Source of the DNA: a virus
Virus record (IMG/VR): IMGVR_UViG_3300037042_006844
Location: 122,556 to 186,555 of that record
Strand: one strand, 5' to 3'
DNA length: 64,000 nt
In this document: positions 20,005-63,305 of the stretch, in pieces
Numbering within the stretch: position 1 is the first letter of the stretch
How the letters are laid out: each line of letters starts with the position of its first letter
Made by a program: the position numbers and the translations under genes
Notes under the pieces: generated by a model
The model's database searches: none
What the model was told of the DNA's origin: nothing
Seen by the model: only the letters and a program-made list of their open reading frames with translations

Positions 20005-20346
20005 ATGAAACGCATTCTTTTTTCTATGGCTCTGGTTGCAACCGCATTGGTGGGGTGTGCCTCACATGAAACCACGGAGTCTCCCCAGCCCCCATCTACT
20101 GTGATTTACTATTATGATCCAATGCCCCCTTCGATGTGGATATACGAGTCACGTTTTTATCGCCACACACCCAGACCGGGTGTTGTTGTAGCAAGACCTC
20201 CGCATCGTGAGCCGCCACATGGGCATGATGATCACAGAGTTGCACCAACACCACCAATACCACCACCCGTCAAGGCACCTCCAGTGCATAACAACAACAA
20301 AATGCAGCCCCAGCCCGCAAATCGCATACATAATAGCGAGCGTTGA
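20005..20346 (+). CDS. Pro-rich lipoprotein
   Basis: Lipobox …ATALVGCASHE. Pro/His-rich C-terminus. Confidence 0.5.
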   Translation: MKRILFSMALVATALVGCASHETTESPQPPSTVIYYYDPMPPSMWIYESRFYRHTPRPGVVVARPPHREPPHGHDDHRVAPTPPIPPPVKAPPVHNNNKMQPQPANRIHNSER

Positions 20347-20371
20347 CAAATTGAGGTGGTTGTGTTAAGAT
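20343..20371 (+). promoter_or_regulatory. sigma70-like promoter (TTGACA-N17-TAAGAT) upstream of the structured leader of the coaD-coaE gene
   Basis: Read directly from the sequence. Confidence 0.45.
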
Positions 20372-20377
20372 AGTTAA

Positions 20378-20433
20378 ATGGTCGGAATTCCTCCTCTTGG
20401 CTAAAGCCGAAGAGGTTTCCTTCCTCCAAAAAT
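20378..20433 (+). repeat. conserved 5' leader element, copy 1, with a TAAA-loop hairpin
   Basis: AATGGTCGGAATTCCTCC-CTCTTGGC-TAAA-GCCGAAGAGG-TTTCCTTCCTCCAAAAATATG. About 85% identical to 41614..41661, with compensatory changes in the stem. Confidence 0.6.
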
Positions 20434-21567
20434 ATGAAAACCTGCATTTACCCCGGAAGTTTTGACCCAGTTACATTCGGACATGTTGATATTATCAACC
20501 GTGCAGCCAGCACGTTTGACAAAGTTATTGTTGCGGTTGGGATCAACAGCAGCAAAAAATATACATTCAAAACTGAACAACGCATACAGTTTCTTAAAAA
20601 CAATATCAAGCAGAGTAATGTATGTGTAATGCCATTCGATGGATTGCTGGCGGATTTTGCATACGAAAACAATGCCAAGACCATTATCAAAGGTGTTCGC
20701 AACAACCAAGATTTTGATTATGAAAGATTGTTGCACGAAATCACCATCACACAGCAAGCTGGAATTGACACACATATTCTGGTGGCAGATCAAAAGTTGA
20801 GCCACATCAGCAGCACTGCCGTAAAAGAACTGTGCAAATTTCAAGGGTTAATTCATGAATATGTTCCCTATGATGTCAAGGAAGCATTGGAGTGGGTGCT
20901 GAATGGGCAATTTATTGTGGGAGTCACTGGAGAAATTGGCATGGGCAAAAGCTATGTCAGTTCAAAGATCGTCGAAAAAACGGATGGCTGGCTTGGATAT
21001 GTGCATCCAGTGACAAATGTGGATTTGGATAAAGTGGCGCACGAATTGTATGAATCGGATGCTCCAGCCCATTTGGAATTGCGAGAAAATATCATTGAAC
21101 GGTTTCAAATGAAAAGTGGCTTCAGCCGAAAAGAGTTGGGCGATGTTGTGTTCAATGACATCAATAAACTACAACAACTCAATACTTTGATTCGCACACC
21201 ACTACTCACATTGCTGCGCAAGAAAATCAGAGAGCACAAGGGTTTGATTTTGTTGAATGGAGCATTGCTGGTTGAAGGCAACTACTTGTCGCTTTGCAAC
21301 AACAATGTGGTGGTAGTAGAATCAACAGAGCAGCAACAATTGGAAAATCTGGAACGTCGTGGGTTGACCGAAAAACAAGTTGAACGTCGATGGGCAAGTC
21401 AACTGACCACAGATGGAAAAATCAGACAGATCAACAGAGAAATTGAAAAGCATGGTCATGGCAAGTGCATCAAATACCAAAATGTTTACGTTGATCCATA
21501 TCAGGACCATATGAACACGTTTTTGATCAATCCATTGTATAACATGATGAGCAATCTTGAGAAATAA
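20434..21567 (+). CDS. coaD: bifunctional phosphopantetheine adenylyltransferase (CoaD) and dephospho-CoA kinase (CoaE) fusion
   Basis: N-terminal domain aligns with E. coli PPAT throughout (IYPGSFDPVTFGHVDI, SKK…F…EQR, KGVRNNQDFDYE, ISSTAVKE). C-terminal domain has a P-loop (IVGVTGEIGMGKSYV) and dephospho-CoA kinase-like layout. Confidence 0.75.
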   Translation: MKTCIYPGSFDPVTFGHVDIINRAASTFDKVIVAVGINSSKKYTFKTEQRIQFLKNNIKQSNVCVMPFDGLLADFAYENNAKTIIKGVRNNQDFDYERLLHEITITQQAGIDTHILVADQKLSHISSTAVKELCKFQGLIHEYVPYDVKEALEWVLNGQFIVGVTGEIGMGKSYVSSKIVEKTDGWLGYVHPVTNVDLDKVAHELYESDAPAHLELRENIIERFQMKSGFSRKELGDVVFNDINKLQQLNTLIRTPLLTLLRKKIREHKGLILLNGALLVEGNYLSLCNNNVVVVESTEQQQLENLERRGLTEKQVERRWASQLTTDGKIRQINREIEKHGHGKCIKYQNVYVDPYQDHMNTFLINPLYNMMSNLEK

Positions 21568-22378: not shown

Positions 22379-22423
22379 CATTTCATAGTTCCATGCCATA
22401 ATTATATTCAAGGTCAACAACCC

Positions 22424-22795
22424 CTAGGCTAAAGCCATAGGGGCTTGAAAGACACCGAGCTTTCTCAGTGATTTACATTCATTTGGCGAATTGACTGTCG
22501 CCTGCCCATCAAGTATGTTTCCATACGAGACGGGAAGTTTGGAACGATTTCCTATGTTCCGTGCAGCATTTAAGTCTGCATCATACACAATCCCACTCTT
22601 CGCATAAAACCTACAACCTCTACGCACACCCTCTTTGATACCACTAAAACTATCAATTTGAGAAGTGTAAGCAGGGCTAACTAGAATAACATTTTTTCCA
22701 ATGTTTTCTGCCTTGTAAGTTAATATTCTGCGAAGTTCAAATAATGGAACTTGTGCTATATGAGCAGTAAATGGATTTCGCCTCCTGCAATTCAC
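22424..22795 (-). pseudogene. tnpB: truncated TnpB (C-terminal RuvC region only), same lineage as 24855..26051
   Basis: …VRRGCRFYAKSGIVYDADLNAARNIG parallels …VRKGCRYYGLDKVVLDADLNAANNI in the full-length copy. The N-terminal roughly 270 aa are absent. A TAAA-loop hairpin overlaps its 3' end (22421-22443). Confidence 0.55.
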
Positions 22796-24819: not shown

Positions 24820-24847
24820 TTGACATTTTATAGAACCGTGGTAAGAT
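24820..24847 (+). promoter_or_regulatory. sigma70-like promoter (TTGACA-N16-TAAGAT) reading antisense into the tnpB 3' end and hairpin
   Basis: Read from the sequence. Its function is uncertain. Confidence 0.35.
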
Positions 24848-24854
24848 ATAAGTG

Positions 24855-26051
24855 TCAATTGACACACGACCCTAAAGGGTCGGTGCTTGCCAGAGAAGAA
24901 CCTCTGACGATTGGTTGATTGACAGCAACCTGTCCATCGAGTGCGGAGCACGAGATGGAGTGTTCTTTGTCATATCTAAAAGTGATATTGTTCGCAGCAT
25001 TTAGGTCTGCGTCCAATACGACTTTATCAAGTCCATAATACCTACATCCTTTACGGACTCCGTTATCAAGACCACGATGGTCTAATTGGGATGTCCAGTG
25101 CGGATTAACGATGACCACTTGTTTTCCAAGTGATGCTGCCTTGTAGGTCAATATGTTCCTGAGAAGGAAATATGGCATTTGTGAATTGCGATTATTAAAT
25201 CTTCGTCCTTTGAACTTGGATTTAATCTTGGTCAAATCCTCAATCACAATGGTATTTGCCTTTGTGGTGAGAAGATGATTTACAACATTGTGTATGTAGT
25301 TCTTTGAAAAATGGTGTTCACGTCTGCGGAGTTTGGTTTGCTTAACTCTGGTAGAATGTGATTTGTGAGATTGGAGTTTTCTCTTGTTCCAACGTATCTT
25401 ACGTTTGGTTCGGTTAAACTCATTGCCTTTGATGATAATGCCTTCACTGGTAGAAGCAAGTCGTTTGAGTCCCAAATCAACTCCAATACATTTTTTGTTG
25501 TCTTGGAATGTTGTGGTATCGTCAAATACAATAGAGAGGAACACTCTATCGTCTCTTACAAAAAGAGAAGGGTCTTTGAGTTTGTATTTTGAAAATAATT
25601 CGTTGACCTTATTATACTTGAGAAGTTTGGCAGTGATACGACCATTACAAGTTGTCAGTTTAATGGCGTCTTGACCAATCCAAGTATAGATGCGAGTGTC
25701 CAGTTGGATGTTTAGTCGGTTTGTCTCAACTGGTTCTGTGATTTTATGGCAATTGGAACGAAGAGATTTGTATTTTGCAACCACGTCTTGTTCTGCCTTA
25801 ATGACAAACTGACTTGGAAGCATTGGAAGTTGTTCTCGAACCATCTTATAACATCTTTGGTGAAGAGGCATAAGACCATTACAGGACTTCATTCCAAATC
25901 GGATTTTAGATATGATATTGAAAGCATCACGTTTCAACGATAGTGATTTGATGAGAGATTGTTTATCCTCATCATTTTCAAAAATCAGTTGAACATTGTA
26001 TGTTTTCATTATTACTGGATATACATATTGTGAAGAAACAGAAAACAACAA
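24855..26051 (-). CDS. tnpB: TnpB-like RNA-guided nuclease (compact lineage without a canonical CxxC zinc ribbon)
   Basis: RuvC-like motifs (IGVDLGLKRL, …IVIEDL…, DADLNAANNI). The likely start is the internal Met of MKTYNVQLIF. Confidence 0.75.
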   Translation of the reverse strand: MLFSVSSQYVYPVIMKTYNVQLIFENDEDKQSLIKSLSLKRDAFNIISKIRFGMKSCNGLMPLHQRCYKMVREQLPMLPSQFVIKAEQDVVAKYKSLRSNCHKITEPVETNRLNIQLDTRIYTWIGQDAIKLTTCNGRITAKLLKYNKVNELFSKYKLKDPSLFVRDDRVFLSIVFDDTTTFQDNKKCIGVDLGLKRLASTSEGIIIKGNEFNRTKRKIRWNKRKLQSHKSHSTRVKQTKLRRREHHFSKNYIHNVVNHLLTTKANTIVIEDLTKIKSKFKGRRFNNRNSQMPYFLLRNILTYKAASLGKQVVIVNPHWTSQLDHRGLDNGVRKGCRYYGLDKVVLDADLNAANNITFRYDKEHSISCSALDGQVAVNQPIVRGSSLASTDPLGSCVN

Positions 26052-26130
26052 ACTATTTTGAGAAAGTGAGATATTTTCGTTGCTCCTCCCCTACCCTAAA
26101 GGGATAGGGGTTTCCGCAACGAGTGAGAAT

Positions 26131-27237
26131 ATGAAGATAGACATTTCAGCAATTGACCGCTCACAATTTATGGTGCATGAGCATGTTGTGAACGGCGAGG
26201 TCGTTTATTTGGTTCACCCAAAAAATATGGGAGTAAAATGGACTAATGACAATATACATTTGAGATCGAGTATATGGGACAGCGATGGCAATTTGGTGAG
26301 TGCCAGCTTCAAAAAATTCACCAACTGGGGAGAGAATCCTGAGAATTTTCCTGTTCCAGAGTCGTTGCGAAACGCATGTGTTGTGGAGAAGCTCGACGGA
26401 AGCACTTTAATTGTCAGTAAGTATAAGGGCAATTATATTCTTAGAACCCGTGGAACCACAGATGCTGCCAAACTGGACAATGGTTATGAGTTGGAGCAGT
26501 TTAAGCAGACCATTTTGCCTAAACTGTTGGATGTTCATTTGGTTGCTGGAGATACGTGGAAGTATTCATTCTTGTTTGAGTGGGTCAGTCCCGTAAACAA
26601 AATTGTATTAAACTACGGAGATTCTCCAGACTGGTTTTTGATCGGTATCATTTATCATGGGGACTATTCTTTGATTGATCAACTTACGTTGGACAATTTA
26701 GCTTGGCAACATGGTTTGAAACGCCCAACTGTTTACAGCTTTCCAACCATTGAGCAATTATTGAAGGATGTTGATGCTTGGAAGCTCAAGGAGGGCGTGG
26801 TCGTTTACAGCAATCGTGATCAAATGCTGCACAAAGTCAAGGGGGCGTGGTATCTTGCATTGCACCACATGAAGAGCGAGTTGGCGAGTGTTGAGAAAGT
26901 GATGGATGTTTGGTTGGATCAAAACATGCCTACATACAATGCTTTTTATGATTACATTGCGACCACGTTCGATTTTGAGTTGGCAGAGCAGTGCCGTGGA
27001 ACCATCAGCAATCTTTGTGATGCTCGTAAAGAGGTTGATAAGATTGTTGCTGCGATGGCAGATTTCGTGGAGTCGAAAGTGCGTTGTCTGCCGTCACGCA
27101 AAGAGCAAGCACAGCTTGTATTGGGTTCTTATGGTAACACCAACCGTTCGGCGTATGTGTTCGCACTACTCGACGGCAAGACGCTAACTAAAGATCAATA
27201 CAAGAAATTGATGTTCCAAGTAATAATGAAAAAGTGA
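26131..27237 (+). CDS. rnlA: RNA ligase 1 (T4 RnlA/gp63 family)
   Basis: Motif I VVEKLDGSTLIVSKYKGNYILRTRGT (T4: LTKEDGSLVS…KSKGS). Also FKKFTNWGENPE, FLFEWVSPVNKIVLNY and EGVVVYS…HKVKGAWYLALH, which match T4 Rnl1 blocks. ATG at 26131; the track's upstream start lies inside the IS hairpin. Confidence 0.75.
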   Translation: MKIDISAIDRSQFMVHEHVVNGEVVYLVHPKNMGVKWTNDNIHLRSSIWDSDGNLVSASFKKFTNWGENPENFPVPESLRNACVVEKLDGSTLIVSKYKGNYILRTRGTTDAAKLDNGYELEQFKQTILPKLLDVHLVAGDTWKYSFLFEWVSPVNKIVLNYGDSPDWFLIGIIYHGDYSLIDQLTLDNLAWQHGLKRPTVYSFPTIEQLLKDVDAWKLKEGVVVYSNRDQMLHKVKGAWYLALHHMKSELASVEKVMDVWLDQNMPTYNAFYDYIATTFDFELAEQCRGTISNLCDARKEVDKIVAAMADFVESKVRCLPSRKEQAQLVLGSYGNTNRSAYVFALLDGKTLTKDQYKKLMFQVIMKK

Positions 27238-29048: not shown

Positions 29049-29076
29049 TTGACTTTTTTTAACTTCGTGCTATTAT
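29049..29076 (+). promoter_or_regulatory. sigma70-like promoter (TTGACT-N16-TATTAT), ATG 7 nt downstream (leaderless)
   Basis: Read from the sequence. Confidence 0.45.
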
Positions 29077-29082
29077 TATATT

Positions 29083-29316
29083 ATGAGCGAACAACATTTT
29101 TTTGGACCGTCGTGGAATCCAGCAATCAGAGATTTATTGAATCACTTAAAAAATCTTCAAGACGTTGCTGATTATCGTGCTCGGTTGATCACCAACAACT
29201 TTTATGCTCACGAAACTGAGGAAGAACAAACGTTGCGTCAAGCAAAGGCTCAAGCCGCAGCAGATACATATGCGTATTGCATCAGCTGTATTATGGATTT
29301 GAATCGAAAAATCTGA
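29083..29316 (+). CDS. hypothetical protein
   Basis: 77-aa ORF. Confidence 0.4.
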   Translation: MSEQHFFGPSWNPAIRDLLNHLKNLQDVADYRARLITNNFYAHETEEEQTLRQAKAQAAADTYAYCISCIMDLNRKI

Positions 29317-30463: not shown

Positions 30464-30661
30464 ATGAAAACAAAAACATATAAATGCCACGACGTATCAT
30501 TCAATTTCAGCAAAATGGATGAGGACACACTGTTTCGGATGTGGACCCACTATTGCGGCGGGTCTGCATCCGAATCGAAAACAATAAGTGCATTGATTGA
30601 AAATATAGCGCATCTGCGTGGATTCGATGTCACTAAATGGGAAGCAAGAGAATCGGATTGA
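30464..30661 (+). CDS. hypothetical protein
   Basis: 65-aa ORF. Confidence 0.35.
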   Translation: MKTKTYKCHDVSFNFSKMDEDTLFRMWTHYCGGSASESKTISALIENIAHLRGFDVTKWEARESD

Positions 30662-30685
30662 CAATTCGAGAGATCGTGCTATTTT
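30658..30685 (+). promoter_or_regulatory. sigma70-like promoter (TTGACA-N16-TATTTT), ATG 7 nt downstream
   Basis: Read from the sequence. Confidence 0.45.
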
Positions 30686-30691
30686 GATATT

Positions 30692-31072
30692 ATGAAAATT
30701 GAACTAACACCACAGCAAGTCCACTCCGTAGTATTTAACTCTCCTTGGGAAACTCGAACCGCAGTTTTTGATCAGATAATGGTGCTCGCCGAAAAGGGTG
30801 CTCAAGAGCCACCTCTGCCAAAAGTGGTGCCGCCCGTGGAACCGGGTTGTGACAGTGGAGTAAATGCACTGTGTGATAATGAGTCTATTTCCGAATTACT
30901 GGCAACCGTCACTCAGTATGAAAATTCATACGGCGATAATATTATCAAAACTCGAATCGGAATGTGGATGCGTGCTATACCAAACCTCTCAGCAGAAAAC
31001 GCCCTAGAATTATGCAATCGTTTGCGAAACGCTCAGTTGTATTATCAGATTAAGAATTTTGATACAATATGA
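30692..31072 (+). CDS. hypothetical protein
   Basis: 126-aa ORF. Confidence 0.45.
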   Translation: MKIELTPQQVHSVVFNSPWETRTAVFDQIMVLAEKGAQEPPLPKVVPPVEPGCDSGVNALCDNESISELLATVTQYENSYGDNIIKTRIGMWMRAIPNLSAENALELCNRLRNAQLYYQIKNFDTI

Positions 31073-32567: not shown

Positions 32568-32789
32568 ATGGCAAAGAAACTCGTAATCAAATGTGTGGTG
32601 TGTGACAAATCCGATAATTTTTCGGATTCCAAAGACGTTACCCAGGCAAGATGGAAAATTATTGGTTGGAATATCGGTCAAGACGAACCCATATGCACAT
32701 GCAACAAATGTGATTATTTTGATCAACCAAAAAAGCAAGCAAAGTCGAGCGTTGACAAAACAAAAAAAGCTGCTAAGATAACACCATGA
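32568..32789 (+). CDS. small zinc-ribbon protein
   Basis: CVVCDK…CTCNKCDYFD. Confidence 0.4.
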   Translation: MAKKLVIKCVVCDKSDNFSDSKDVTQARWKIIGWNIGQDEPICTCNKCDYFDQPKKQAKSSVDKTKKAAKITP

Positions 32790-40158: not shown

Positions 40159-41556
40159 ATGAATAAAAACATCTGTTTAACTACTGACAGCTACAAGCTA
40201 AACCATTGGAATCAATACCCTCGTAACACCGAGATTGTGTATAGTTATTTCGAGTGTCGCAAAGGAGCAACCTTCGCCGAAACCCCGTTCTTCGGGCTTC
40301 AATACATTATTAAAAGCCACCTTGAGGGCGCAGTCGTGACCAGGGAGAATATTGAGAAGGCAGCTAGGCTTTGCAAATTCCATTTTGGCGACGAGCGTTA
40401 CTTCAACCGTGAGGGCTGGGAATACATCCTCAATAATTGGGGAGGTAAACTTCCAGTCGTTATCAAGGCTGTTGAGGAGGGAACTGTGGTTCCGGTCAAC
40501 AACGTGTTGATGACCATTGAGAATGTGGGCGGTGCCATGACGGCTTGGCTCACCAATTTCCTTGAGACGATTTTGTCCCAAGTATGGTATCCCACAACCG
40601 TTGCAGCTTTGAGCCGTGAGGTCAAAAAGAATATCAAAGAATATCTTGATTTAACCAGTGAGGGCGGACTGCTCAATTTCGGACTGCATGATTTTGGGTT
40701 CCGGGGGGCATCGTCTTGGGAATCTGCTGGTATTGGTGGTGCGGCTCATCTAATCAACTTCCTTGGCACCGATACTTTGGTCGCGATGGAGGTCGCCATG
40801 AACTATTACAATGCAAACCTCGAAGGATTAGCATACAGTGTGGCAGCAACCGAGCACAGTGTGATGACTGCTTTGGGCAAGGACGGTGAGGAAACGGTCG
40901 TCGAGAATCTGCTCAATGAATATCCCACGGGTATTCTTTCTGTGGTCTCCGATAGCTACGACATCTACAATTTTGTTAACAACATCGTTGGACGCAAATT
41001 TAAGGATTGGATTCTTGAGCGTGATGGTGTGTTCGTGGTTAGACCAGATTCCATTACTCCGAGCCATCCAACTCCTGAGCAGGAAATGGTTTGGATTATG
41101 TGGAGTCTTTGGGACAATTTTGGTGGCATTATAAACAGCAAGGGATTTAATGTTATCAATCCCAAGGTTCGTGTTCTTTGGGGCGATGGAATCGATTTGG
41201 AAGGTATCAAAAAGATTCTGTGTGCTGTTGCCGATGCTGGATTTGCAACCGAAAATATCGCATGTTTCGGAATGGGTGGCGGACTCTTACAGAAAGTCAA
41301 TCGTGATACACAGCGTTGTGCATTCAAATCGTCTGCACAGTATCGCAACGGTCAGTGGTTTGATATTTTCAAGAGTCCCAAGGATATTTCCAAGGCTTCC
41401 AAAAAGGGCAAGCTCAAGCTCACCAAGATTGACGGCAAGTTCGTTACTGTTGGTGAAAACGATCCCGGTGAGGATTATTTGAAGGTTGTGTTTACGAATG
41501 GTGTGCTGGTCAAGGAAATTGACTTTGCAACCGTTCGCAAGAACGCTGCTCTATGA
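40159..41556 (+). CDS. nicotinamide phosphoribosyltransferase family protein (NAMPT/NadV; possibly the Namat of a NARP1 pathway)
   Basis: Full-length match to the NAMPT family: LTTDSYKLNHW, VYSYFECR, FGLQY, KAVEEGTVVP, HDFGFRGASS, GTDT, EHS, VVSDSYDIYN, RPDSI, GDGID, FGMGGGLLQKVNRDTQRCAFK and EIDFATVRKNAAL. Confidence 0.85.
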   Translation: MNKNICLTTDSYKLNHWNQYPRNTEIVYSYFECRKGATFAETPFFGLQYIIKSHLEGAVVTRENIEKAARLCKFHFGDERYFNREGWEYILNNWGGKLPVVIKAVEEGTVVPVNNVLMTIENVGGAMTAWLTNFLETILSQVWYPTTVAALSREVKKNIKEYLDLTSEGGLLNFGLHDFGFRGASSWESAGIGGAAHLINFLGTDTLVAMEVAMNYYNANLEGLAYSVAATEHSVMTALGKDGEETVVENLLNEYPTGILSVVSDSYDIYNFVNNIVGRKFKDWILERDGVFVVRPDSITPSHPTPEQEMVWIMWSLWDNFGGIINSKGFNVINPKVRVLWGDGIDLEGIKKILCAVADAGFATENIACFGMGGGLLQKVNRDTQRCAFKSSAQYRNGQWFDIFKSPKDISKASKKGKLKLTKIDGKFVTVGENDPGEDYLKVVFTNGVLVKEIDFATVRKNAAL

Positions 41557-41613
41557 ACTACCCACCCGCTAAAGCAGGCGGGTTTTCTGCTCCCACAAAG
41601 ATAAAATTGTGAA
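41551..41613. mobile_element. apparent tnpB-less miniature derivative of IS-2 (right-end hairpin fused to left-end sequence)
   Basis: 41551-41587 (CTATGAACTACCCACCCGCTAAAGCAGGCGGGTTTTC) matches 60849-60885 at the IS-2 tnpB 3' end in 35 of 37 positions. The next stretch TCTGCTCCCACAAAGATAAAATTGTG matches TCTGCTCCCTCAAAGATAAATATAGTG at 62133-62158, beyond the tnpB start. The NAMPT stop codon lies inside the element. Confidence 0.4.
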
Positions 41614-41661
41614 AATGGTCGGAATTCCTCCCCTTAGGGGTTTCCTTCCTCCAAAACTATG
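41614..41661 (+). repeat. conserved 5' leader element, copy 2
   Basis: AATGGTCGGAATTCCTCC-CCTTAGGGG-TTTCCTTCCTCCAAAACTATG. The stem differs from copy 1 but remains self-complementary. Confidence 0.55.
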
Positions 41662-41677
41662 AAATGGATTAATCCCC

Positions 41678-41705
41678 TTGACTTCTATAAAATCTGTGGT
41701 ATACT
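41678..41705 (+). promoter_or_regulatory. sigma70-like promoter (TTGACT-N16-TATACTTTAG)
   Basis: Near-identical -10 region and downstream sequence to the helicase promoter. ATG 7 nt downstream. Confidence 0.5.
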
Positions 41706-41711
41706 TTAGAT

Positions 41712-41846
41712 ATGAGTGAATATAAAATAAAAACTGTCGTTAATATAGAGTTGGAAAAGGATCATGTTACTGTTGTGGTGTGTGAAAAAGCAGGGTATTT
41801 AGTTCATTATTTCTCATTCGACAATTCGATGGTCATTACTTGGTGA
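41712..41846 (+). CDS. leaderless small ORF of 44 aa (MSEYKIKTVVNIELEKDHVTVVVCEKAGYLVHYFSFDNSMVITW), not in the ORF track
   Basis: ATG 7 nt after the -10 box. Stop TGA at 41844-46. Too short to appear in the supplied track. Confidence 0.3.
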   Translation: MSEYKIKTVVNIELEKDHVTVVVCEKAGYLVHYFSFDNSMVITW

Positions 41847-41858
41847 AAACATAAACGT

Positions 41859-42407
41859 ATGATAAAACTCAAATTACAACAGTGTTTGTGGATCAATCTG
41901 GCGTTTCCAGAATCATCCAAACTGCAACAGCGTGGTATTGCCGACAAGATTGAATCCGACTGCGTTGACATTATCAAAGCAAATTTCACCAATGTAAAAG
42001 CTGCTCGCAGTCGCAGAAGCATTGAAGATGTCACGGTGGAAGGTTGTTATGTTGACATCAAAACCAGCGATGAAGTTTTAATGTTCAAAATGCCCAACTT
42101 GATCAGCATTGATCGGCTTCACAAGTTGGATAAACCACTGTTCTATGTGTTTGTTACCTATAACAGCATCAACAAAGTTATTCTCGACATTAAAGTGATG
42201 AACGTCTATGAATTGAACTGGAGCCAATTGCATATCCAAAATTTGGGTGTGGGACAGCTTCAAATCAAAAACATGTCGAGATTCATGAAAGCTGGTCCCA
42301 GCGCGATGAATGAGCAAACGTGGAAAAACACATTGAAACAACAAGCGGTTCTTTTCTACGACAAGCTGATCAAAAAAACAGAAATTCGTAAAAATAAATG
42401 GTCGTAA
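41859..42407 (+). CDS. hypothetical protein between the NAMPT-family and PRPS-family genes
   Basis: 182-aa ORF. Contains EGCYVDIKTSDE, which resembles a PD-(D/E)xK core, but this is only weakly supported. Confidence 0.45.
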   Translation: MIKLKLQQCLWINLAFPESSKLQQRGIADKIESDCVDIIKANFTNVKAARSRRSIEDVTVEGCYVDIKTSDEVLMFKMPNLISIDRLHKLDKPLFYVFVTYNSINKVILDIKVMNVYELNWSQLHIQNLGVGQLQIKNMSRFMKAGPSAMNEQTWKNTLKQQAVLFYDKLIKKTEIRKNKWS

Positions 42408-44236: not shown

Positions 44237-44330
44237 GGTTCTGTAGTTTAACTGGTAAAACCCCATACTTATAATATGGTAATCGCTAGATGTGCGTGAC
44301 TTCTCGGTTCGAATCCGAGCAGAACCACCA
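44237..44330 (+). tRNA. class II tRNA with a long variable arm and an apparent UAU anticodon
   Basis: Acceptor stem GGTTCTG/CAGAACC plus A and CCA. D arm GTTT-AACTGGTA-AAAC. Anticodon stem-loop CCATA-CTTATAA-TATGG. Variable arm of about 23 nt with a CGC/GCG stem. T arm CTCGG-TTCGAAT-CCGAG. Confidence 0.55.
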
Positions 44331-51090: not shown

Positions 51091-51200
51091 CTCAGGGGGT
51101 GGTGTTGATTTTTATAGTTGACACCCGCCCATCTATGATCTATGATCCATTTATGCAGAACACAAACAAAAAATTTGACAAAGACCCGATTGGTTCCAGA

Positions 51201-54288: not shown

Positions 54289-54894
54289 ATGCATACATCA
54301 ACACAAAAATTGATTAGATGGAGTGAGGAATTGGGAGTTGATCAACTAGCCAAAGTTGTGCTGGAATCTCCCAGATTCGACATTTGGAGTGGTAGCAGCA
54401 AACCAACGCAGCATCACTATGGCAAACATGGTTTGACCATTCATACACACGAAGTGGTCAACCTTTGTATGGAAATTCCACATACATTATGCGTTCAAGT
54501 CAACACAATCGAACTGTTTTTGTCTGCGGTGTTTCACGATTGCGGTAAAATGTTTGATTATAAACCAGCACGGGGAGATTTTGCTGGATCTATTGATTAC
54601 AATAATTGGGTCGGAACTGATCACAAACGGCTGATTCATCATGTTAGTCGATCAGCATTGATTTGGCAGACTGCATGGGACAATGCTGTATCAAACAACA
54701 TTTGTGACCGAGACCCAGAATTGGTGGATCGTGTATTGCACAACATATTGTCGCATCATGGTCAGCGTCAGTGGGGTAGTCCAGTGATGCCAAAAACCAA
54801 AGAAGCATGGCTTTTGCATTTGTGTGACGGCATCAGTGCTCGTATGAACGATGCCGATAAATGGGATTTTGTTGCAGATACACCGAAACTATAG
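54289..54894 (+). CDS. HD-domain phosphohydrolase
   Basis: His at IHTHE, HD motif at LSAVFHDCGK, downstream His and Asp at LSHHG and HLCD. Confidence 0.6.
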   Translation: MHTSTQKLIRWSEELGVDQLAKVVLESPRFDIWSGSSKPTQHHYGKHGLTIHTHEVVNLCMEIPHTLCVQVNTIELFLSAVFHDCGKMFDYKPARGDFAGSIDYNNWVGTDHKRLIHHVSRSALIWQTAWDNAVSNNICDRDPELVDRVLHNILSHHGQRQWGSPVMPKTKEAWLLHLCDGISARMNDADKWDFVADTPKL

Positions 54895-54917
54895 AATGTT
54901 TTGCCATATTTATAATC

Positions 54918-56084
54918 ATGGCAAATACAAACTATACTGATTTACTCTTCAAAGACAATTTTATTTCTTGGATCAACGCTATCGCTTCAAACGATAGCGA
55001 TGCAACCATTAAAACGGCTGCAAAAGAAATTTCCACCAACGTATCCACAGACACAGCGGTTGCTCCAAAACCATACTACAATGCGCTGTATAACAAATAT
55101 CAATTCAAAATTCTATCGACCAAAATAAATGGGGCGATTGGATCAGCACTGTATTCGTTCGTTGGGCAAAAACAAAAGCTGATCGGCACAATTCAAAAAA
55201 ATCCCGTTGTCAAAACGGTGACTCCTCCAACCCCAGTTCCTCCCGCACCCACTCCCACACCAGAAACAGTCTATACGTTTGGTGTGTTAGGCGACAGTGG
55301 TATGAGCGGGTTGTTGGAATACACAGAAGCAGTGGCTACACAAATTCAAAGCTACAATCCACAATGGGTTGTTCATGTTGGGGATTGCAATTACAGCAGC
55401 CCGGGATTGTTGTGGAACAATTTTTTGCAATATTGGCAACACGATTCTTTCTACGCCAGACACATGTATATAGCGTTTGGTAATCACGATCTGGATGTCG
55501 ATTACGGAGGGGCGATATTGACTGCTTTAGAATACACCACTGCTGCCGCGATTGGTCCTGAGAAACAAGATACGCATCTTCTGTGCTATGATTTTGTGCG
55601 TGGACCCGTTCATTTTTTCGTATTTAACACAGGCAACACAGCTTCTGGCGATCAAATGGATGAAGAAATTGACCCAAACATTCAACTGCAAGCTCAGATT
55701 GATGAACTTGAGCCATTGATGTTGGCATCCACATCTCCTTGGAAAGTGGTTGTGTGTCATAAACCTCCCTATACAAGTGAACAGGTGCATAGAGAGGGCG
55801 CAGCACCCATGCGCCTCGACTATGCTGCACTGGGAATTGATATAGTTCTCAGCGGTCACAGCCACGACTACGAGGTATACACCAACGGAGGCATTCAATA
55901 TTTTGTTCAAGGTTTGGGCGGAGCATCAAGACGTTGCGTGACCGAACCATTGGTTGAAGGTTATGTTACGGATTTCTGCCAAAATTGGGGTTATTCAATC
56001 TGTAATGTTACTTCAAAACACTTCACAATTGCCACGTTCGACATTGCTGGATACACCATCGACGTTCGCTCGTTCAGCAAATAA
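54918..56084 (+). CDS. calcineurin-like metallophosphoesterase (purple-acid-phosphatase-like)
   Basis: VHVGDCNY, FGNHDLD and GHSHDYE motifs. Likely start at MANTNYT; track ORF 54861..56084. Confidence 0.65.
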   Translation: MANTNYTDLLFKDNFISWINAIASNDSDATIKTAAKEISTNVSTDTAVAPKPYYNALYNKYQFKILSTKINGAIGSALYSFVGQKQKLIGTIQKNPVVKTVTPPTPVPPAPTPTPETVYTFGVLGDSGMSGLLEYTEAVATQIQSYNPQWVVHVGDCNYSSPGLLWNNFLQYWQHDSFYARHMYIAFGNHDLDVDYGGAILTALEYTTAAAIGPEKQDTHLLCYDFVRGPVHFFVFNTGNTASGDQMDEEIDPNIQLQAQIDELEPLMLASTSPWKVVVCHKPPYTSEQVHREGAAPMRLDYAALGIDIVLSGHSHDYEVYTNGGIQYFVQGLGGASRRCVTEPLVEGYVTDFCQNWGYSICNVTSKHFTIATFDIAGYTIDVRSFSK

Positions 56085-56719: not shown

Positions 56720-57676
56720 CTATTTAATATCACCAATCCAATGAACCGTTACCATGTCGGTTGCATCATCATGGATACCATAATAATTGCAATGACTTAC
56801 ATCCAAGCAAAGGTTTTGTGTATAGCTTTTGGCAGTGGGCCTGCCATTATACAACCATACTGGTTTTCTTTGCGGCGTATGCCCAAAAACTTGGTTAATT
56901 CCCATAATTGGTCTGAACTCGCTAGAATCGCACCAAATGATTCCACCGAAAGGATGGTCGCCACCACGGCTATATCCAGCACACAGAATTTCCTCTCGCA
57001 CACCACCTCCAAATGCTACTTTCAATGCTTTGTCGCAAGTTGATCGTAACTGCTCTTTAAGGTCGAATTCCCGACGATAGAAATGCTCATGGAATCCAGC
57101 ATGAGTGCAAAGCCAACTGCCAACCCAAGTATGCAATGGTAGCTTTTCCCAATCGTTTTCAGTCATGATGGCATTAATAGCAAACTCTTTTGCTTGTTCA
57201 TAGCCACTGCATTTGTATGCACGGTGTGGCACGGCATAATGAATGTCGTGGTTGCCCATCAGATGAATTCGATTTGGTTGCTTCAGAGAATTCACCAACC
57301 AATCTGCGGTTTCGGCAGCATCGGCGGGGGTATCACCGAAGTCATCAAAATAGTCACCGAGAAAGACAACTGCATCAGCAGCCTCATGCTTGATTATTTT
57401 GTCAGCTTTTTCCCATTTCAAGTGAATATCTGGGATAATTAATGTTCGTTTACTCATCTTATAATGATAACACGGAACTTCCACGATGTCAACATCTGGC
57501 TCAGTATTTTTTGGCTTTTTTGGGCGACCCCAATCAATGCCGTCGTAGTTTTTGTTATACTGACTTTTCTTCACTGGACGGGGTTTGTCCCCCTTGCCCG
57601 CTTGTTTGTTGCTCATAAAGTTGCTGGTATCCGTCTTCAATGGCTGTAAAAAACTGTCCTTTGCGATACATTTCAA
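56720..57676 (-). CDS. Ser/Thr-phosphatase-like metallophosphoesterase (lambda PPase family)
   Basis: LIIPDIHLKW, VFLGDYFD and MGNHDIHY motifs. Possible true starts at MSNKQ (about 57616) or MSKRTL (about 57456). The track ORF overlaps 57555..57950. Confidence 0.6.
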   Translation of the reverse strand: MKCIAKDSFLQPLKTDTSNFMSNKQAGKGDKPRPVKKSQYNKNYDGIDWGRPKKPKNTEPDVDIVEVPCYHYKMSKRTLIIPDIHLKWEKADKIIKHEAADAVVFLGDYFDDFGDTPADAAETADWLVNSLKQPNRIHLMGNHDIHYAVPHRAYKCSGYEQAKEFAINAIMTENDWEKLPLHTWVGSWLCTHAGFHEHFYRREFDLKEQLRSTCDKALKVAFGGGVREEILCAGYSRGGDHPFGGIIWCDSSEFRPIMGINQVFGHTPQRKPVWLYNGRPTAKSYTQNLCLDVSHCNYYGIHDDATDMVTVHWIGDIK

Positions 57677-60848: not shown

Positions 60849-62160
60849 CTATGAACTACCCACCTGCTAAAGCAGGTGGGTTTCCACCGCAATAGTTATG
60901 AGTTTCTATCGGGTAGTTCCTACCCGTATTAAACGTTGTCTTTGGAAATGAGAAGTCCAAGATATTCTTGGCAGCATTCACATCTCTATCGTGTTTCTCA
61001 TTACAATCTGGGCAAGTCCATTCTCTATCATTTAATGTAAGAGAATGATTAACATATCCACAATGAGAACACGTCTTACTGGATGGTTCAAATCTACCTA
61101 TTTTTAGGAAGTTCTTACCATACCAGTCGCTTTTATATTGGAGCATATTTACAAATTTTCCCCAAGCATAATCTCCTATGAGTTTATTAGTTGGTGAATA
61201 GTTGTTCTTCTGCATCCCCCGAATGGTTAAATCCTCAATACAGATATTACCAATTTGGTTATCATTGGTTAGTTTGTATGAGAGTTTATCCAAGAAATCT
61301 TTGCGTTGTCTTGTTATTTTAGAATGGAGTTTGGTTATCTGCTCTTGCTTGGAGATATGAGCAGTAGAACCTTTAGTGAGTTGCTCCAAATCCTGTTGGT
61401 GTTTAGTAAGTTTATCAGCAGATTGTTTCAATACCTTCGGGTTCTCAATCTTTGTTCCATCATTCAGAGTAAGAAATGTTTTTACTCCAAAATCTATTCC
61501 TATTGCTTTATCCTTTTTTGGTGTTGGTTTCTTTGATAGTTCTTTTTCAACCTCTACAAGAATGGAAACATAGTATCGTTTATCTCTGTCTTGGGATACG
61601 ATTGCTTGTTTAATCGTTCCTTCTGCTTGTCGGTCAAAGATACATTTAATGCCTCCACGAAACTTTGGAATGACTAATCGCTTTCCATCATAGTTCAACT
61701 TAATGTTGTTATTAGTCATTGGGACAACGAACGATTTACGAGCATACTTCTTCGACTTAAACTTTGGAAATCCAGCATTGGAACGAAAGAAGGAAGTATA
61801 TGCTCTATCCAAGTTGAGGATGGATTGCTGTAGCGATTGAGAACCTATCTCACTCAACCATTCATTTGTCTTTTTCAACTTTGGAAGTTCAGTTGCCATA
61901 TCCTGCCAGTTCAATGTTTTCTTGGTTTCTTTGTAATGCTTAATCTTTACTTCAAGGAAATGGTTGTATATCCATCGGCAGTGTCCAAAATGCTTGGACA
62001 AAAGAACCTCTTGTTCCTTGGTAGGATATATTCTGTATTTGTAAGCAACGTTATACATTCTACAACATACATATCATTCACTTTCTAAAAACGATTAATT
62101 ATTTTTCAATGGGTCGCATTCATCCCATATGGGGTTTCTGCTCCCTCAAAGATAAATATA
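60849..62160 (-). mobile_element. IS200/IS605-family element carrying only tnpB (IS-2)
   Basis: TnpB 60856..62058. Perfect TAAA-loop hairpin CCCACCTGC-TAAA-GCAGGTGGG at 60859-80, which encodes the TnpB C-terminus. Hairpin CCCATATGGGG plus TTTCTGCTCCC beyond the start (62108-62160). Boundaries are approximate. Confidence 0.45.
60856..62058 (-). CDS. tnpB: TnpB (OrfB_IS605 type, with a zinc ribbon)
   Basis: YKYRIYPTKEQ N-terminus, DFGVKTF (RuvC I), CIEDL (RuvC II), CSHCG…CPDCN zinc finger and DRDVNAAKNI (RuvC III). Confidence 0.8.
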   Translation of the reverse strand: MYNVAYKYRIYPTKEQEVLLSKHFGHCRWIYNHFLEVKIKHYKETKKTLNWQDMATELPKLKKTNEWLSEIGSQSLQQSILNLDRAYTSFFRSNAGFPKFKSKKYARKSFVVPMTNNNIKLNYDGKRLVIPKFRGGIKCIFDRQAEGTIKQAIVSQDRDKRYYVSILVEVEKELSKKPTPKKDKAIGIDFGVKTFLTLNDGTKIENPKVLKQSADKLTKHQQDLEQLTKGSTAHISKQEQITKLHSKITRQRKDFLDKLSYKLTNDNQIGNICIEDLTIRGMQKNNYSPTNKLIGDYAWGKFVNMLQYKSDWYGKNFLKIGRFEPSSKTCSHCGYVNHSLTLNDREWTCPDCNEKHDRDVNAAKNILDFSFPKTTFNTGRNYPIETHNYCGGNPPALAGG

Positions 62161-62554: not shown

Positions 62555-62760
62555 GCATCTTGTTGGTTATAATGGTGGAATTCCATAGCCTCATTCTCGG
62601 TCATGCCATCGTCCATAAGCTTTTGCAGCACTTTGTCGGTATCATATACAACATATTCGCCGCTACCACTACGGGATCCAATACCAGCGATACAGTCGTC
62701 GTATCCATCCATTGTGATGAGTTCGTTCGTTTCAATATACTCCTGTAAACTTGTTTTCAT
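62500..62760 (-). CDS. hypothetical protein
   Basis: 86-aa ORF. Confidence 0.3.
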   Translation of the reverse strand: MKTSLQEYIETNELITMDGYDDCIAGIGSRSGSGEYVVYDTDKVLQKLMDDGMTENEAMEFHHYNQQDAWVGLNTPGFIVTMNSNR

Positions 62761-63305
62761 TTGGGGCTTAGATATCCGTGCTTAATGTAGTGAATAATGT
62801 TTTCTCGTCCAACCGGGTCCATGCTGTGAACCAAAAACGATGGATGTGCTACGCCCTCTTTTCTGCATTCTTCGCACAAAAATCTGGCGCAGTCATAACC
62901 AGTTTTTTCGTCAGTGATCGGACCATCATAATGATGATCATTCTCCTCCAGAATGTGGTCGTAACAAACGAACTCAGGAATTCCTTTGCTGCGAATAACA
63001 TCGCAAAATGCATCGTAGTTTCTCACAATTGTCCATTCAGTTGGAATGGTTGGGAGTGTAACCCAATAAACCCAATCAGGCATTCGGATATCGTCAAGAA
63101 AAAGATAGTATGGTTGCATAGAGTTTTCTTCCAGATGTAGAGTATACATCACTTCTCCATCGTTGTAAAGACAATCGTTGGTTCTCTCGACCTTTTTGAC
63201 CACGATCCCATTTCTGCCATAATGGGCAATAATTTCGTCCAACTGTTCGGCAGTTTTGACTTTATGTAGCTGAATTGAATTGTTGTTGATAATATCTCGC
63301 ATCAT
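62757..63305 (-). CDS. hypothetical protein
   Basis: 182-aa ORF. Confidence 0.45.
   Translation of the reverse strand: MMRDIINNNSIQLHKVKTAEQLDEIIAHYGRNGIVVKKVERTNDCLYNDGEVMYTLHLEENSMQPYYLFLDDIRMPDWVYWVTLPTIPTEWTIVRNYDAFCDVIRSKGIPEFVCYDHILEENDHHYDGPITDEKTGYDCARFLCEECRKEGVAHPSFLVHSMDPVGRENIIHYIKHGYLSPK

Follow-up and report, generated by a model that had tools for sequence, protein, structure and literature searches.

The Repeat and Its Two Copies

The window analysed here is a 64,000-nt stretch of DNA from an uncultured phage (positions 122,556 to 186,555 of the IMG/VR record IMGVR_UViG_3300037042_006844; coordinates count from the window start). It encodes a coaD-coaE fusion gene (coaDE; 20434-21567, plus strand), whose product carries the Pfam domains CTP_transf_like and CoaE and has 448 homologues. 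A repeat of about 57 nt lies directly before this gene, and a second copy is found 3' of the NAMPT gene. An original prediction, made from the letters alone, took the repeat for a duplicated, structured 5' leader of two different genes. In all likelihood, however, it represents the outermost segment of the left end (LE) of a tnpB-only insertion sequence of the IS200/IS605 family that is colonising this uncultured phage lineage.

The original prediction placed the repeat at 20378-20436 and 41614-41661, and the repeat is real; both halves are exact and each is confined to two sites of the window. The sequence AATGGTCGGAATTCCTCC occurs at 20377-20394 and 41614-41631 (chance expectation 0.02; none of 100 shuffles reaches two sites), and GGTTTCCTTCCTCCAAAA at 20414-20431 and 41639-41656. 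A looser pattern, CCTCC-N-GGTTTCC, gains a third site at 26085-26115.

Copy 1 (20377-20433, minus strand) has both exact halves and is the same as the LE of a full-length element in locus L001 (L-numbers denote fetched loci from related phage contigs, 1.47 Mb in total). It is a solo LE of the subfamily of the repeat termed L-type. Here the top strand of the transposon is the minus strand of the window, and the plus strand reads as the 5' untranslated region (UTR) of coaDE. Upstream lies a predicted sigma70-like, outward-facing promoter (Pout; 20343-20371, plus strand), composed of the -35 element TTGACA (20343-20348), a 17-nt spacer, and the -10 element TAAGAT (20366-20371). Copy 1 starts 5 nt past this strong promoter and ends 0 nt before the ATG of coaDE; as the prediction had it, the copy lies directly before coaD-coaE and would be transcribed as a 5' UTR. 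The ATGAA that follows (20434-20438, plus strand) includes the native start codon of coaDE and is also the complement of 5'-TTCAT, the transposon-adjacent motif (TAM). Pout and LE occur in identical form inside the full-length tnpB elements of L001, L005, and L006; the spacer sequence of Pout occurs once in the window, where copy 1 keeps the promoter up to its -35 element. The core of copy 1 is a subterminal imperfect palindrome (20393-20415), CCTCTTGGC-TAAA-GCC(G)AAGAGG, with 6 bp, one bulged base, 3 bp, and a 4-nt loop. Compared with shuffles, it folds well both as RNA (-19.2 kcal/mol, z -2.7) and as top-strand single-stranded DNA (z -2.75).

Copy 2 (41614-41658, minus strand) is a decayed L-type LE. 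It is located 3' of the NAMPT gene and a hairpin, and 5' of a short open reading frame (ORF) and the promoter of a 44-codon ORF. Its central CCCC-TTA-GGGG (41630-41640) had been read as a compensatory change of the stem relative to copy 1. Instead, copy 2 corresponds to the CCCCTTGGC-TAAA-GCCGAAGGGG variant found in L007, L020, and L023, minus 12 nt (GGCTAAAGCCGA) of the hairpin top, and the remainder folds as RNA no better than shuffles (z +0.5). All that remains of Pout is a -10-like TAAAAT, with no -35 element. The TAM complement ATGAA again follows (41659-41663, plus strand) and opens an ORF of 16 codons, rather than the 13 originally counted, which runs into the next promoter. Copy 2 abuts a 48-nt single-hairpin remnant (41553-41600, minus strand) of a second element type, termed B-type. 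The top strand of this remnant reads TTTAT followed by CTTTGTGGGAGCAGAAAACC CGCCTGC TTTA GCGGGTG GGTAGTTCAT, and its hairpin is terminator-like and lies after NAMPT.

Several features border the two copies. ORF113 (20005-20346), which has a lipoprotein-type signal (MKRILFSMALVATALVGC...) and a proline-rich tail, lies between a DUF3307 gene and the promoter of copy 1. It is absent from the coaDE loci of relatives, and its stop codon overlaps the -35 element of Pout. Around copy 2, a 7-nt direct repeat, CTATGAA, at 41551-41557 and 41657-41663 brackets 99 nt (41558-41656) that comprise the B-type remnant and copy 2; its first occurrence (41551-41557) includes the NAMPT stop codon. This repeat probably reflects a right-end (RE) terminus (..GTTCAT) that mimics TTCAT rather than a target duplication. 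Beyond copy 2, the window has an extra segment (41664-42407) compared with L032 and L034, in both of which PRPP synthetase comes directly after NAMPT. The segment holds a leaderless 44-codon ORF (41712-41846) and a 182-aa ORF (41859-42407). The latter contains a ...EDVTVEGCYVDIKTS... stretch that could be a PD-(D/E)XK nuclease motif, and Pfam gives no match.

tnpB Elements in the Window

A tblastn search of the window with five TnpB proteins returned three places only, namely two elements, IS-A and IS-B, and a C-terminal fragment at 22430-22783. No TnpB-like sequence was found beside copy 1 or copy 2 in this search, and both copies are consequently solo left ends.

IS-A (24854-26130, minus strand) is an intact, 1277-bp, tnpB-only element of the IS200/IS605 family, of a sister type to the L-type elements. 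It comprises tnpB (24855-26009), an LE (26052-26130), and an RE terminus, ...GTCAATTGAC, at 24854. Its TnpB contains the Pfam domain OrfB_IS605 and a Cas12f1-like TNB domain. Four further copies are located at unrelated sites (L028-L031; 72-91% aa identity), and the LE and RE that they have in common set the boundaries of the element. On the 5' side of tnpB, the copies share TTCAT, then AT... CGTTGC GGAAACC CCTATCCC TTTA GGGTAGG GGAGGAGCAACG, whereas at the 3' end of tnpB they share GGCAAGCACCGACCCTTTAGGGTCGTGTGT..TTGAC, where the element ends. The LE hairpin (26088-26110), CCCCTACCC-TAAA-GGG(A)TAGGGG, is closed by CGTTGC (26078-26083) and GCAACG (26116-26121). A hairpin in the RE (24867-24882), CGACCC-TAAA-GGGTCG, has the same loop and stem top. 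The LE hairpin had been noted originally as a related structure (26088-26121) that precedes the RNA ligase gene. Because four other copies of IS-A have common ends, this hairpin is not a leader of that gene but belongs to the LE of the insertion sequence at 24854-26130. The RNA ligase gene itself (26131-27237, plus strand; Pfam RNA_lig_T4_1; 60 related loci) starts with ATGAAG right after the LE of IS-A. Its native promoter (24820-24853, plus strand; TTGACA, 16-nt spacer, TAAGAT, 6 nt) is now separated from the ATG by IS-A. The empty site of the window tnpB element can be reconstructed as TTCAT directly followed by ACTTATATCTTACCAC.

The fragment is what remains of a truncated L-type element (22413-22795, minus strand), consisting of the C-terminal third of tnpB (Pfam TNB) and the RE, CAAGCCCCTATGGCTTTAGCCTAGGGGTTGTTGAC, with its terminus at 22413. 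The TnpB portion (22430-22783) is 85% identical in amino acid sequence to the TnpB of L007, and its RE is as in L007 and L004. The possibility that copy 1 and this fragment are halves of one element was rejected, as on the top strand the RE would lie upstream of the LE and the two belong to different subtypes (L001-like and L007-like, respectively).

IS-B (60851-62151, minus strand) carries tnpB at 60856-62058, has the TAM TTTAT at 62152-62156, and ends with an RE that reads ...GGGTAGTTCAT. Its 400-aa TnpB contains the Pfam domains HTH_OrfB_IS605, OrfB_IS605, and TNB. Compared with the copy in L020, the top of its LE hairpin has been deleted, which indicates that IS-B is probably immobile. The B-type remnant beside copy 2 is homologous to the RE of IS-B and to the 5' flank of its LE. 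At the 3' end of tnpB and in the RE, where elements of this family encode the omega RNA of TnpB (its guide RNA, with the guide drawn from flanking DNA past the RE), a conserved RE region of the form GGCAAGC.CC...hairpin...TTGAC is seen.

The Repeat in Related Phages and in Cellular Genomes

Searches for the family, made with regular expressions and BLAST, located the exact halves of the repeat in 27 IMG/VR stretches, including contigs of 369, 354, and 296 kb; individual contigs hold several copies. The arrangement has a constant order: a sigma70-like promoter, 5-7 nt, AATGGTCGGAATTCCTCC, the hairpin, GGTTTCCTTCCTCCAA..., 1-4 nt, and the ATGAA of differing genes. Read on the minus strand, the supposed leader aligns with the LE of IS-A as TTCAT followed by ATTTTTGGAGGAA GGAAACC TCTTCGGC TTTA GCCAAGA GGAGGAATTCCGACCATT. 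The 5' part of the LE in L029 (ATGGCGTCGGTTCCTCC) likewise aligns with the AATGGTCGGAATTCCTCC of the leader. In most repeat-carrying loci, a tnpB homologue adjoins the promoter and leader on the opposite strand, as revealed by tblastx of the fetched loci against the window. The repeat is found 60-190 nt from the start of a divergent tnpB in L001/L005/L006, L002, L004, L007, L013, L015, L016, and L026.

The elements extracted from these loci consist of TTCAT, the LE, the reverse complement of the promoter, 60-190 nt, a tnpB encoding 384-408 aa, and the RE. Their termini follow a common layout in the relatives, in which TTCAT is followed by A(T)n GGAGGAAGGAAACC, the hairpin, GGAGGAATTCCGACCATT, the outward promoter, tnpB, the RE hairpin, and TTGTTGAC. 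The RE of L-type elements reads CAAGCCCCTAT(CCC/GGC)TTTA(GGG/GCC)TAGGGGTTGTTGAC up to the junction, and full elements end with TTGAC. LE and RE hairpins follow one design in IS-A and eight full L-type elements, and they fold as single-stranded DNA. On the top strand, the design comprises 6 bp, then a bulged pyrimidine and 3 bp, with TTTA as the loop.

The same design extends to cellular genomes. In a prokaryote scan with one genome per species, the LE signature GGAAACC-N8-TTTA-N7-GGAGGAA, with TTCAT about 15 nt upstream, was found in multiple copies in Desulfobacter latus, Methanosarcina, Desulfosporosinus, Clostridia, and others. As for the CCUCC stretches of the repeat, which had been proposed to resemble the anti-Shine-Dalgarno sequence, they are the complement of this GGAGGAA/GGAGGAAGG signature, which is regarded here as ancient. 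Since the signature is common to insertion sequence ends of Desulfobacter, Methanosarcina, Desulfosporosinus, and others, CCUCC was not selected in this phage as a mimic of the anti-Shine-Dalgarno sequence.

Decayed derivatives accompany the full elements. Solo copies in other contigs are cut off at varying inner points. Single-hairpin elements of about 55 nt, in which the 5' flank of the LE is joined to the 3' terminus of the RE, occur at four unrelated sites (L001, L009, L018, and L020); their top strand reads TTCAT, then A..GGAGGAAGGAAACC-hairpin-GGT(A/T)GTTGA(C/T). These may be either LE/RE recombination scars or minimal mobile units. Varied truncations together with single-hairpin versions form the pattern expected from the decay of transposon copies.

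Conservation of the LE Hairpin

The 9-bp LE hairpin is fully paired (100%) in 16 distinct sequences, with five pairs changed on both sides. Its covariation score is 0.349, as compared with 0.109 in shuffles, and none of 500 shuffles reaches the observed value. The TAAA loop, the three top pairs, and the bulged purine are conserved. The hairpin is therefore under selection for pairing across related genomes, although such covariation is equally compatible with selection on a DNA hairpin that binds a transposase and with selection on an RNA. Selection for structure, which had been predicted from the two copies in the window, is thus borne out among the copies of relatives and not in copy 2. The prediction had also named an alternative to itself, according to which the repeat would be insertion sequence debris with no conserved hairpin; the DNA does derive from an insertion sequence end, but the hairpin is conserved in related genomes. 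An outer GGAA/UUCC helix is predicted by folding as well. It shows no covariation, is broken in 2-3 of the 16 sequences, and is not claimed here.

GC-rich stem-loops in intergenic DNA could also be common intrinsic terminators, or REP-like palindromes between genes, with no relation to transposons, and the B-type hairpin after NAMPT, which is followed by TTTTCT on the plus strand, has such an appearance. The L-type hairpin, in contrast, is followed by GGUUUCCUUCC with no U run (GGUUUCCUUCCUCC, then the start codon), and a terminator reading fails on this point. Moreover, this hairpin lies downstream of a promoter and right before a start codon, and neither terminators nor REP-like palindromes would explain the conserved flanks, the TAM, or the adjacent tnpB. 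This explanation can hardly be credited.

Target Sites and Empty Sites

The junction of the LE with the flanking DNA is strict. [A/G]TGAA directly follows the LE in 25 of 25 distinct contexts (23 ATGAA and two GTGAA, corresponding to the TAM TTCAT and two instances of TTCAC). In eight of these contexts, the apparent start codon opens an ORF of only 2-31 codons (<35), and the background frequency of ATGAA starts among long window ORFs is 15 of 49. Taken together, these counts indicate that ATGAA is there as the complement of the TAM rather than because translation requires it.

Empty sites provide a second line of evidence. The RNA ligase gene of about 36 distinct relatives has no leader, and its start region reads TTGACx-16/17-TAAnnT, 6 nt, and ATGAA(G/A)ATTGA. 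The filled site in the window reads TTGACA-16-TAAGAT-ataagt, IS-A, ATGAAG, and that of L001 reads TTGACT-16-TAAAGT-aattgt, an L-type element, ATGAAG. Both insertions are clean, with no target-site duplication. As read from these sites, IS-A has split the RNA ligase gene from its predicted promoter.

The coaDE loci of relatives, obtained through protein database and contig look-ups, encode proteins that are 63-92% identical and lack both the promoter and the element; coaDE abuts or overlaps the upstream gene there, and these element-free genes also begin with ATGAAA. Likewise, copy 2 is absent from 13 NAMPT loci of relatives, two of which have a PRPP synthetase gene directly after NAMPT. Among cultured phages, megablast with the coaDE region gave no match and tblastn with the RNA ligase gave matches of at most 26% aa identity, which leaves no usable annotated relative; a protein-guided scan of viral contigs for coaDE gave no match.

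The closest coaDE relative, L045 (656-700; 92% aa identity), has the N-terminus MNNNKNNKIAVFAAS, as compared with MKTCIYPGS in the window (20434-20480), which shares MK(T/I/N)C(I/V)Y with more distant relatives. This distribution suggests a recombination breakpoint within the first ~15 codons of coaDE.

Judged by its sequence context, copy 1 is a promoter-plus-LE stub that has survived the loss of the rest of its element, and its predicted promoter is the only evident one for coaDE. It has possibly been co-opted as the promoter and 5' UTR of this gene. Copy 2 is a dead, decayed stub.

A Predicted Outward Promoter in a Phage with Leaderless Genes

The L-type subfamily is set apart by its promoter. 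TTGACA-17-TAnnnT lies at a fixed distance from the LE, pointing outward, in 13 of 16 L-type contexts, as compared with none of four IS-A-type LEs and two of 109 bacterial or archaeal LEs. The spacers of Pout vary between lineages, whereas the hexamers and their spacing are kept, which argues for selection on the function of this predicted promoter.

The phage itself is built around leaderless genes. At least 14 consensus promoters in the window (TTGACx-16/18-TAnnnT) have an ATG 6-9 nt past the -10 element; examples of such leaderless promoters are found at 594-633, 29049-29085, 30658-30694, 32752-32788, and 51118-51155 on the plus strand, and at 57492, 5319, 4918, 4381, and 3105 on the minus strand. 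A Shine-Dalgarno-like motif precedes 7 of 85 likely window genes. The A/T run at the tip of the LE resembles the A/T-rich start context that is usual in this phage.

These features bear on a rival reading of the repeat as a dedicated cis-regulatory RNA leader, selected before particular phage genes as a translational operator, a processing site, or a CCUCC stretch that sequesters a ribosome-binding region. The repeat is always co-oriented with the downstream gene and starts 5-7 nt past a -10 element, its hairpin covaries with loop and bulge conserved, and copy 1 folds better than shuffles, all of which would suit a leader. Nevertheless, the same DNA shares homology with the LE of tnpB transposons and in relatives actually forms that end. 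Orthologous coaDE and NAMPT loci lack it, no gene follows it in 8 of 25 cases, and its signature recurs at bacterial and archaeal insertion sequence ends that lack the promoter. Rfam gives no match, whether at the gathering threshold or with E relaxed to 1. In addition, a phage that hardly uses Shine-Dalgarno sequences offers nothing for an anti-Shine-Dalgarno mimic to sequester. A leader dedicated to these genes is therefore highly improbable, and an IS200/IS605 LE accounts for the repeat instead.

The LE also contains an internal ATG (AAUGGUCGG; AATGGTCGG), whose A is the 6th to 8th nucleotide past the -10 element, the spacing of leaderless genes. This ATG begins a mini-ORF of 8 codons (MVGIPPxG), which terminates at the UAA of the hairpin loop; the start and in-frame stop are kept in most copies. 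A conserved leader peptide was considered and rejected, as the ATG is missing from L004 and L015 and the seventh codon changes along with the stem. The ATG is retained as a speculative ribosome-loading site, in view of the same two copies.

A broader role for L-type elements can be proposed tentatively, as a possible but rather doubtful reading of these features. They might be self-compensating transposons adapted to leaderless phages, which, with a TAM complementary to the commonest start context (ATGAA), land between a gene and its promoter and restore expression through Pout. Ribosomes could load at the internal AUG and reinitiate 28-31 nt downstream, at the AUG of the target gene, and stubs such as copy 1 would be domesticated cassettes.

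Comparison with Known Systems

The elements described here resemble IS608, ISDra2, and ISGst2-5 (tnpB-only, IS1341-type/IS605-group) in several respects. The available text of PMC3201880 describes how IS608 TnpA recognises subterminal imperfect palindromes at both ends of the element, with the cleavage sites some distance away. TTCAT is the published TAM of ISGst5 in the work that defined TAM, TEM, and palindrome-associated transposable elements (PATEs) and described ORF-less PATE derivatives (Meers et al.). Shared features include subterminal imperfect palindromes in LE and RE without terminal inverted repeats, insertion on the 3' side of a 5-nt motif with no duplication of the target, and a tnpB that encodes OrfB_IS605 (RuvC-like) and TNB (zinc-ribbon) domains and extends at its 3' end into the RE. 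Both also include decayed and miniature derivatives. Unlike these systems, the present elements reside in phage genomes with no tnpA found nearby, and the L-type members send Pout through the LE and are inserted at the ATGAA starts of leaderless genes or genes without Shine-Dalgarno sequences.

PATEs, which are short, non-coding, and bounded by IS605-type ends, have counterparts in the single-hairpin versions of L001, L009, L018, and L020 (TTCAT, then the LE flank, the hairpin, and GGT(A/T)GTTGAC). The two window copies differ from PATEs, in which LE and RE are both present and enclose no ORF. In copy 1, the LE is accompanied by a promoter, with no RE hairpin within reach, and copy 2 is a damaged LE joined to the end of another insertion sequence type, the B-type single-hairpin remnant.

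Two further systems are similar in part. The PeSL cassettes of T4-type phages are conserved promoter-terminator motifs that mediate modular gene shuffling (PMC2839356, PMC4122927). As in that case, a repeated promoter-plus-stem-loop module borders variable gene segments in large phage genomes; however, the sequences are unrelated, and the available text of these reports does not present PeSL as transposon ends, whereas the module described here is a transposon end with a TAM junction. IStrons, in which an IS605-type transposon is fused to a group I intron and removes itself from RNA by splicing (PMC4227781), likewise combine an element of this family with an added device that spares the host gene the damage of insertion. 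In the present elements there is no intron, and the proposed device would be an outward promoter with a tolerated 5' UTR.

Origin and Spread of the Repeat

By analogy with IS608, ISDra2, and the ISGst elements, the hairpin would be the subterminal imperfect palindrome that a Y1 TnpA binds on the single-stranded top strand, and the invariant LE flanks would serve recognition of the cleavage site. Covariation of the stem would then track the divergence of transposon lineages that need a paired hairpin. The elements sit 3' of TTCAT without target duplication. As the complement of TTCAT is ATGAA, and the genes of this phage are mostly leaderless or devoid of Shine-Dalgarno sequences and often start with ATGAA, surviving insertions come to sit exactly between the transcription start, or the upstream gene, and the ATG. 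The Pout of L-type elements is predicted to transcribe outward through the LE, which would become a 5' UTR, and a gene separated from its promoter by the insertion would gain a new one. What appears to go beyond the known family is the Pout of this phage-borne subfamily and its fit to leaderless ATGAA starts.

Some observations weigh against an insertion sequence end as the full account of the repeat. No Y1 TnpA was found in the window or in the 1.47 Mb of fetched loci by tblastn and phmmer, a search that did not cover the rest of the phage genome or the host; any current mobility would need a transposase supplied in trans. The query was the TnpA of IS608, validated against PDB 2a6m, and the sole weak candidate was Pfam negative. 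As far as can be seen, the elements are non-autonomous. The lack of tnpA is expected for non-autonomous tnpB-only elements. Copy 1, which is without an RE, is not a complete mobile unit. Covariation cannot separate selection at the DNA level from selection at the RNA level. The activity of the promoter, the site at which transcription starts, and an influence of the hairpin, if any, on coaDE expression are consensus-based predictions only. Finally, identical promoter-plus-LE cassettes stand before coaDE in the window and before the RNA ligase gene in L001, so that they may also stem from recombination of cassettes rather than from transposition.

This last point leads to the proposal that promoter and LE form a domesticated, PeSL-like regulatory cassette, which homologous or illegitimate recombination carries from one gene boundary to another when phages co-infect, independently of transposition. 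Identical spacer and LE sequences before different genes in different phages, with the promoter occurring once in the window, are consistent with such movement, as are the differing inner truncation points of solo copies and the failure to find TnpA. The window copies also edge segments that relatives lack (ORF113 with promoter and LE; copy 2 with promoter, ORF44, and ORF182). Against this, the cassette still resides inside intact tnpB elements in most loci, and the strict TTCAT junction (25/25) is a signature of transposition that recombination alone would not keep. The cassette proposal is unlikely. It concerns the later spread of the repeat rather than its origin and in this sense complements the derivation from an insertion sequence end without replacing it; recombination may add to the distribution of the repeat.

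RNA-Related Genes of the Window

The window encodes further functions related to RNA. A tRNA-Ile (anticodon TAT; 44237-44330) measures 94 nt according to ARAGORN, as compared with 75-77 nt for its neighbours, and may contain an intron or a long insertion. Rfam matches it at 44237-44327 over the whole tRNA model with 60 bits. In addition to the RNA ligase (26131-27237), a protein with a cREC_REC (cyclic-phosphate processing receiver) domain (62757-63305) and two metallophosphoesterases (54861-56084 and 56720-57676) are encoded. Together, these four proteins may constitute an RNA-repair toolkit.

Implications for the Phage Lineage and the Transposon Family

An apparent regulatory RNA is reclassified here as transposon-end DNA, which guards against the annotation of such phage repeats as riboregulators. 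The analysis documents an uncultured phage lineage, with contigs of more than 350 kb and the 369-kb record IMGVR_UViG_3300025162_000016 among its members, in which leaderless genes are pervasive and several IS605-family tnpB elements reside, including one subfamily with an added outward promoter that inserts at start codons. Should the promoter and the leader derived from the LE prove functional, they would represent a simple way for a DNA transposon to offset the cost of its insertion in a compact viral genome, and they would be a source of portable promoters. The predicted TAM of the intact elements, together with a guide derived from their flanks, makes TnpB-driven homing between co-infecting phages directly testable.

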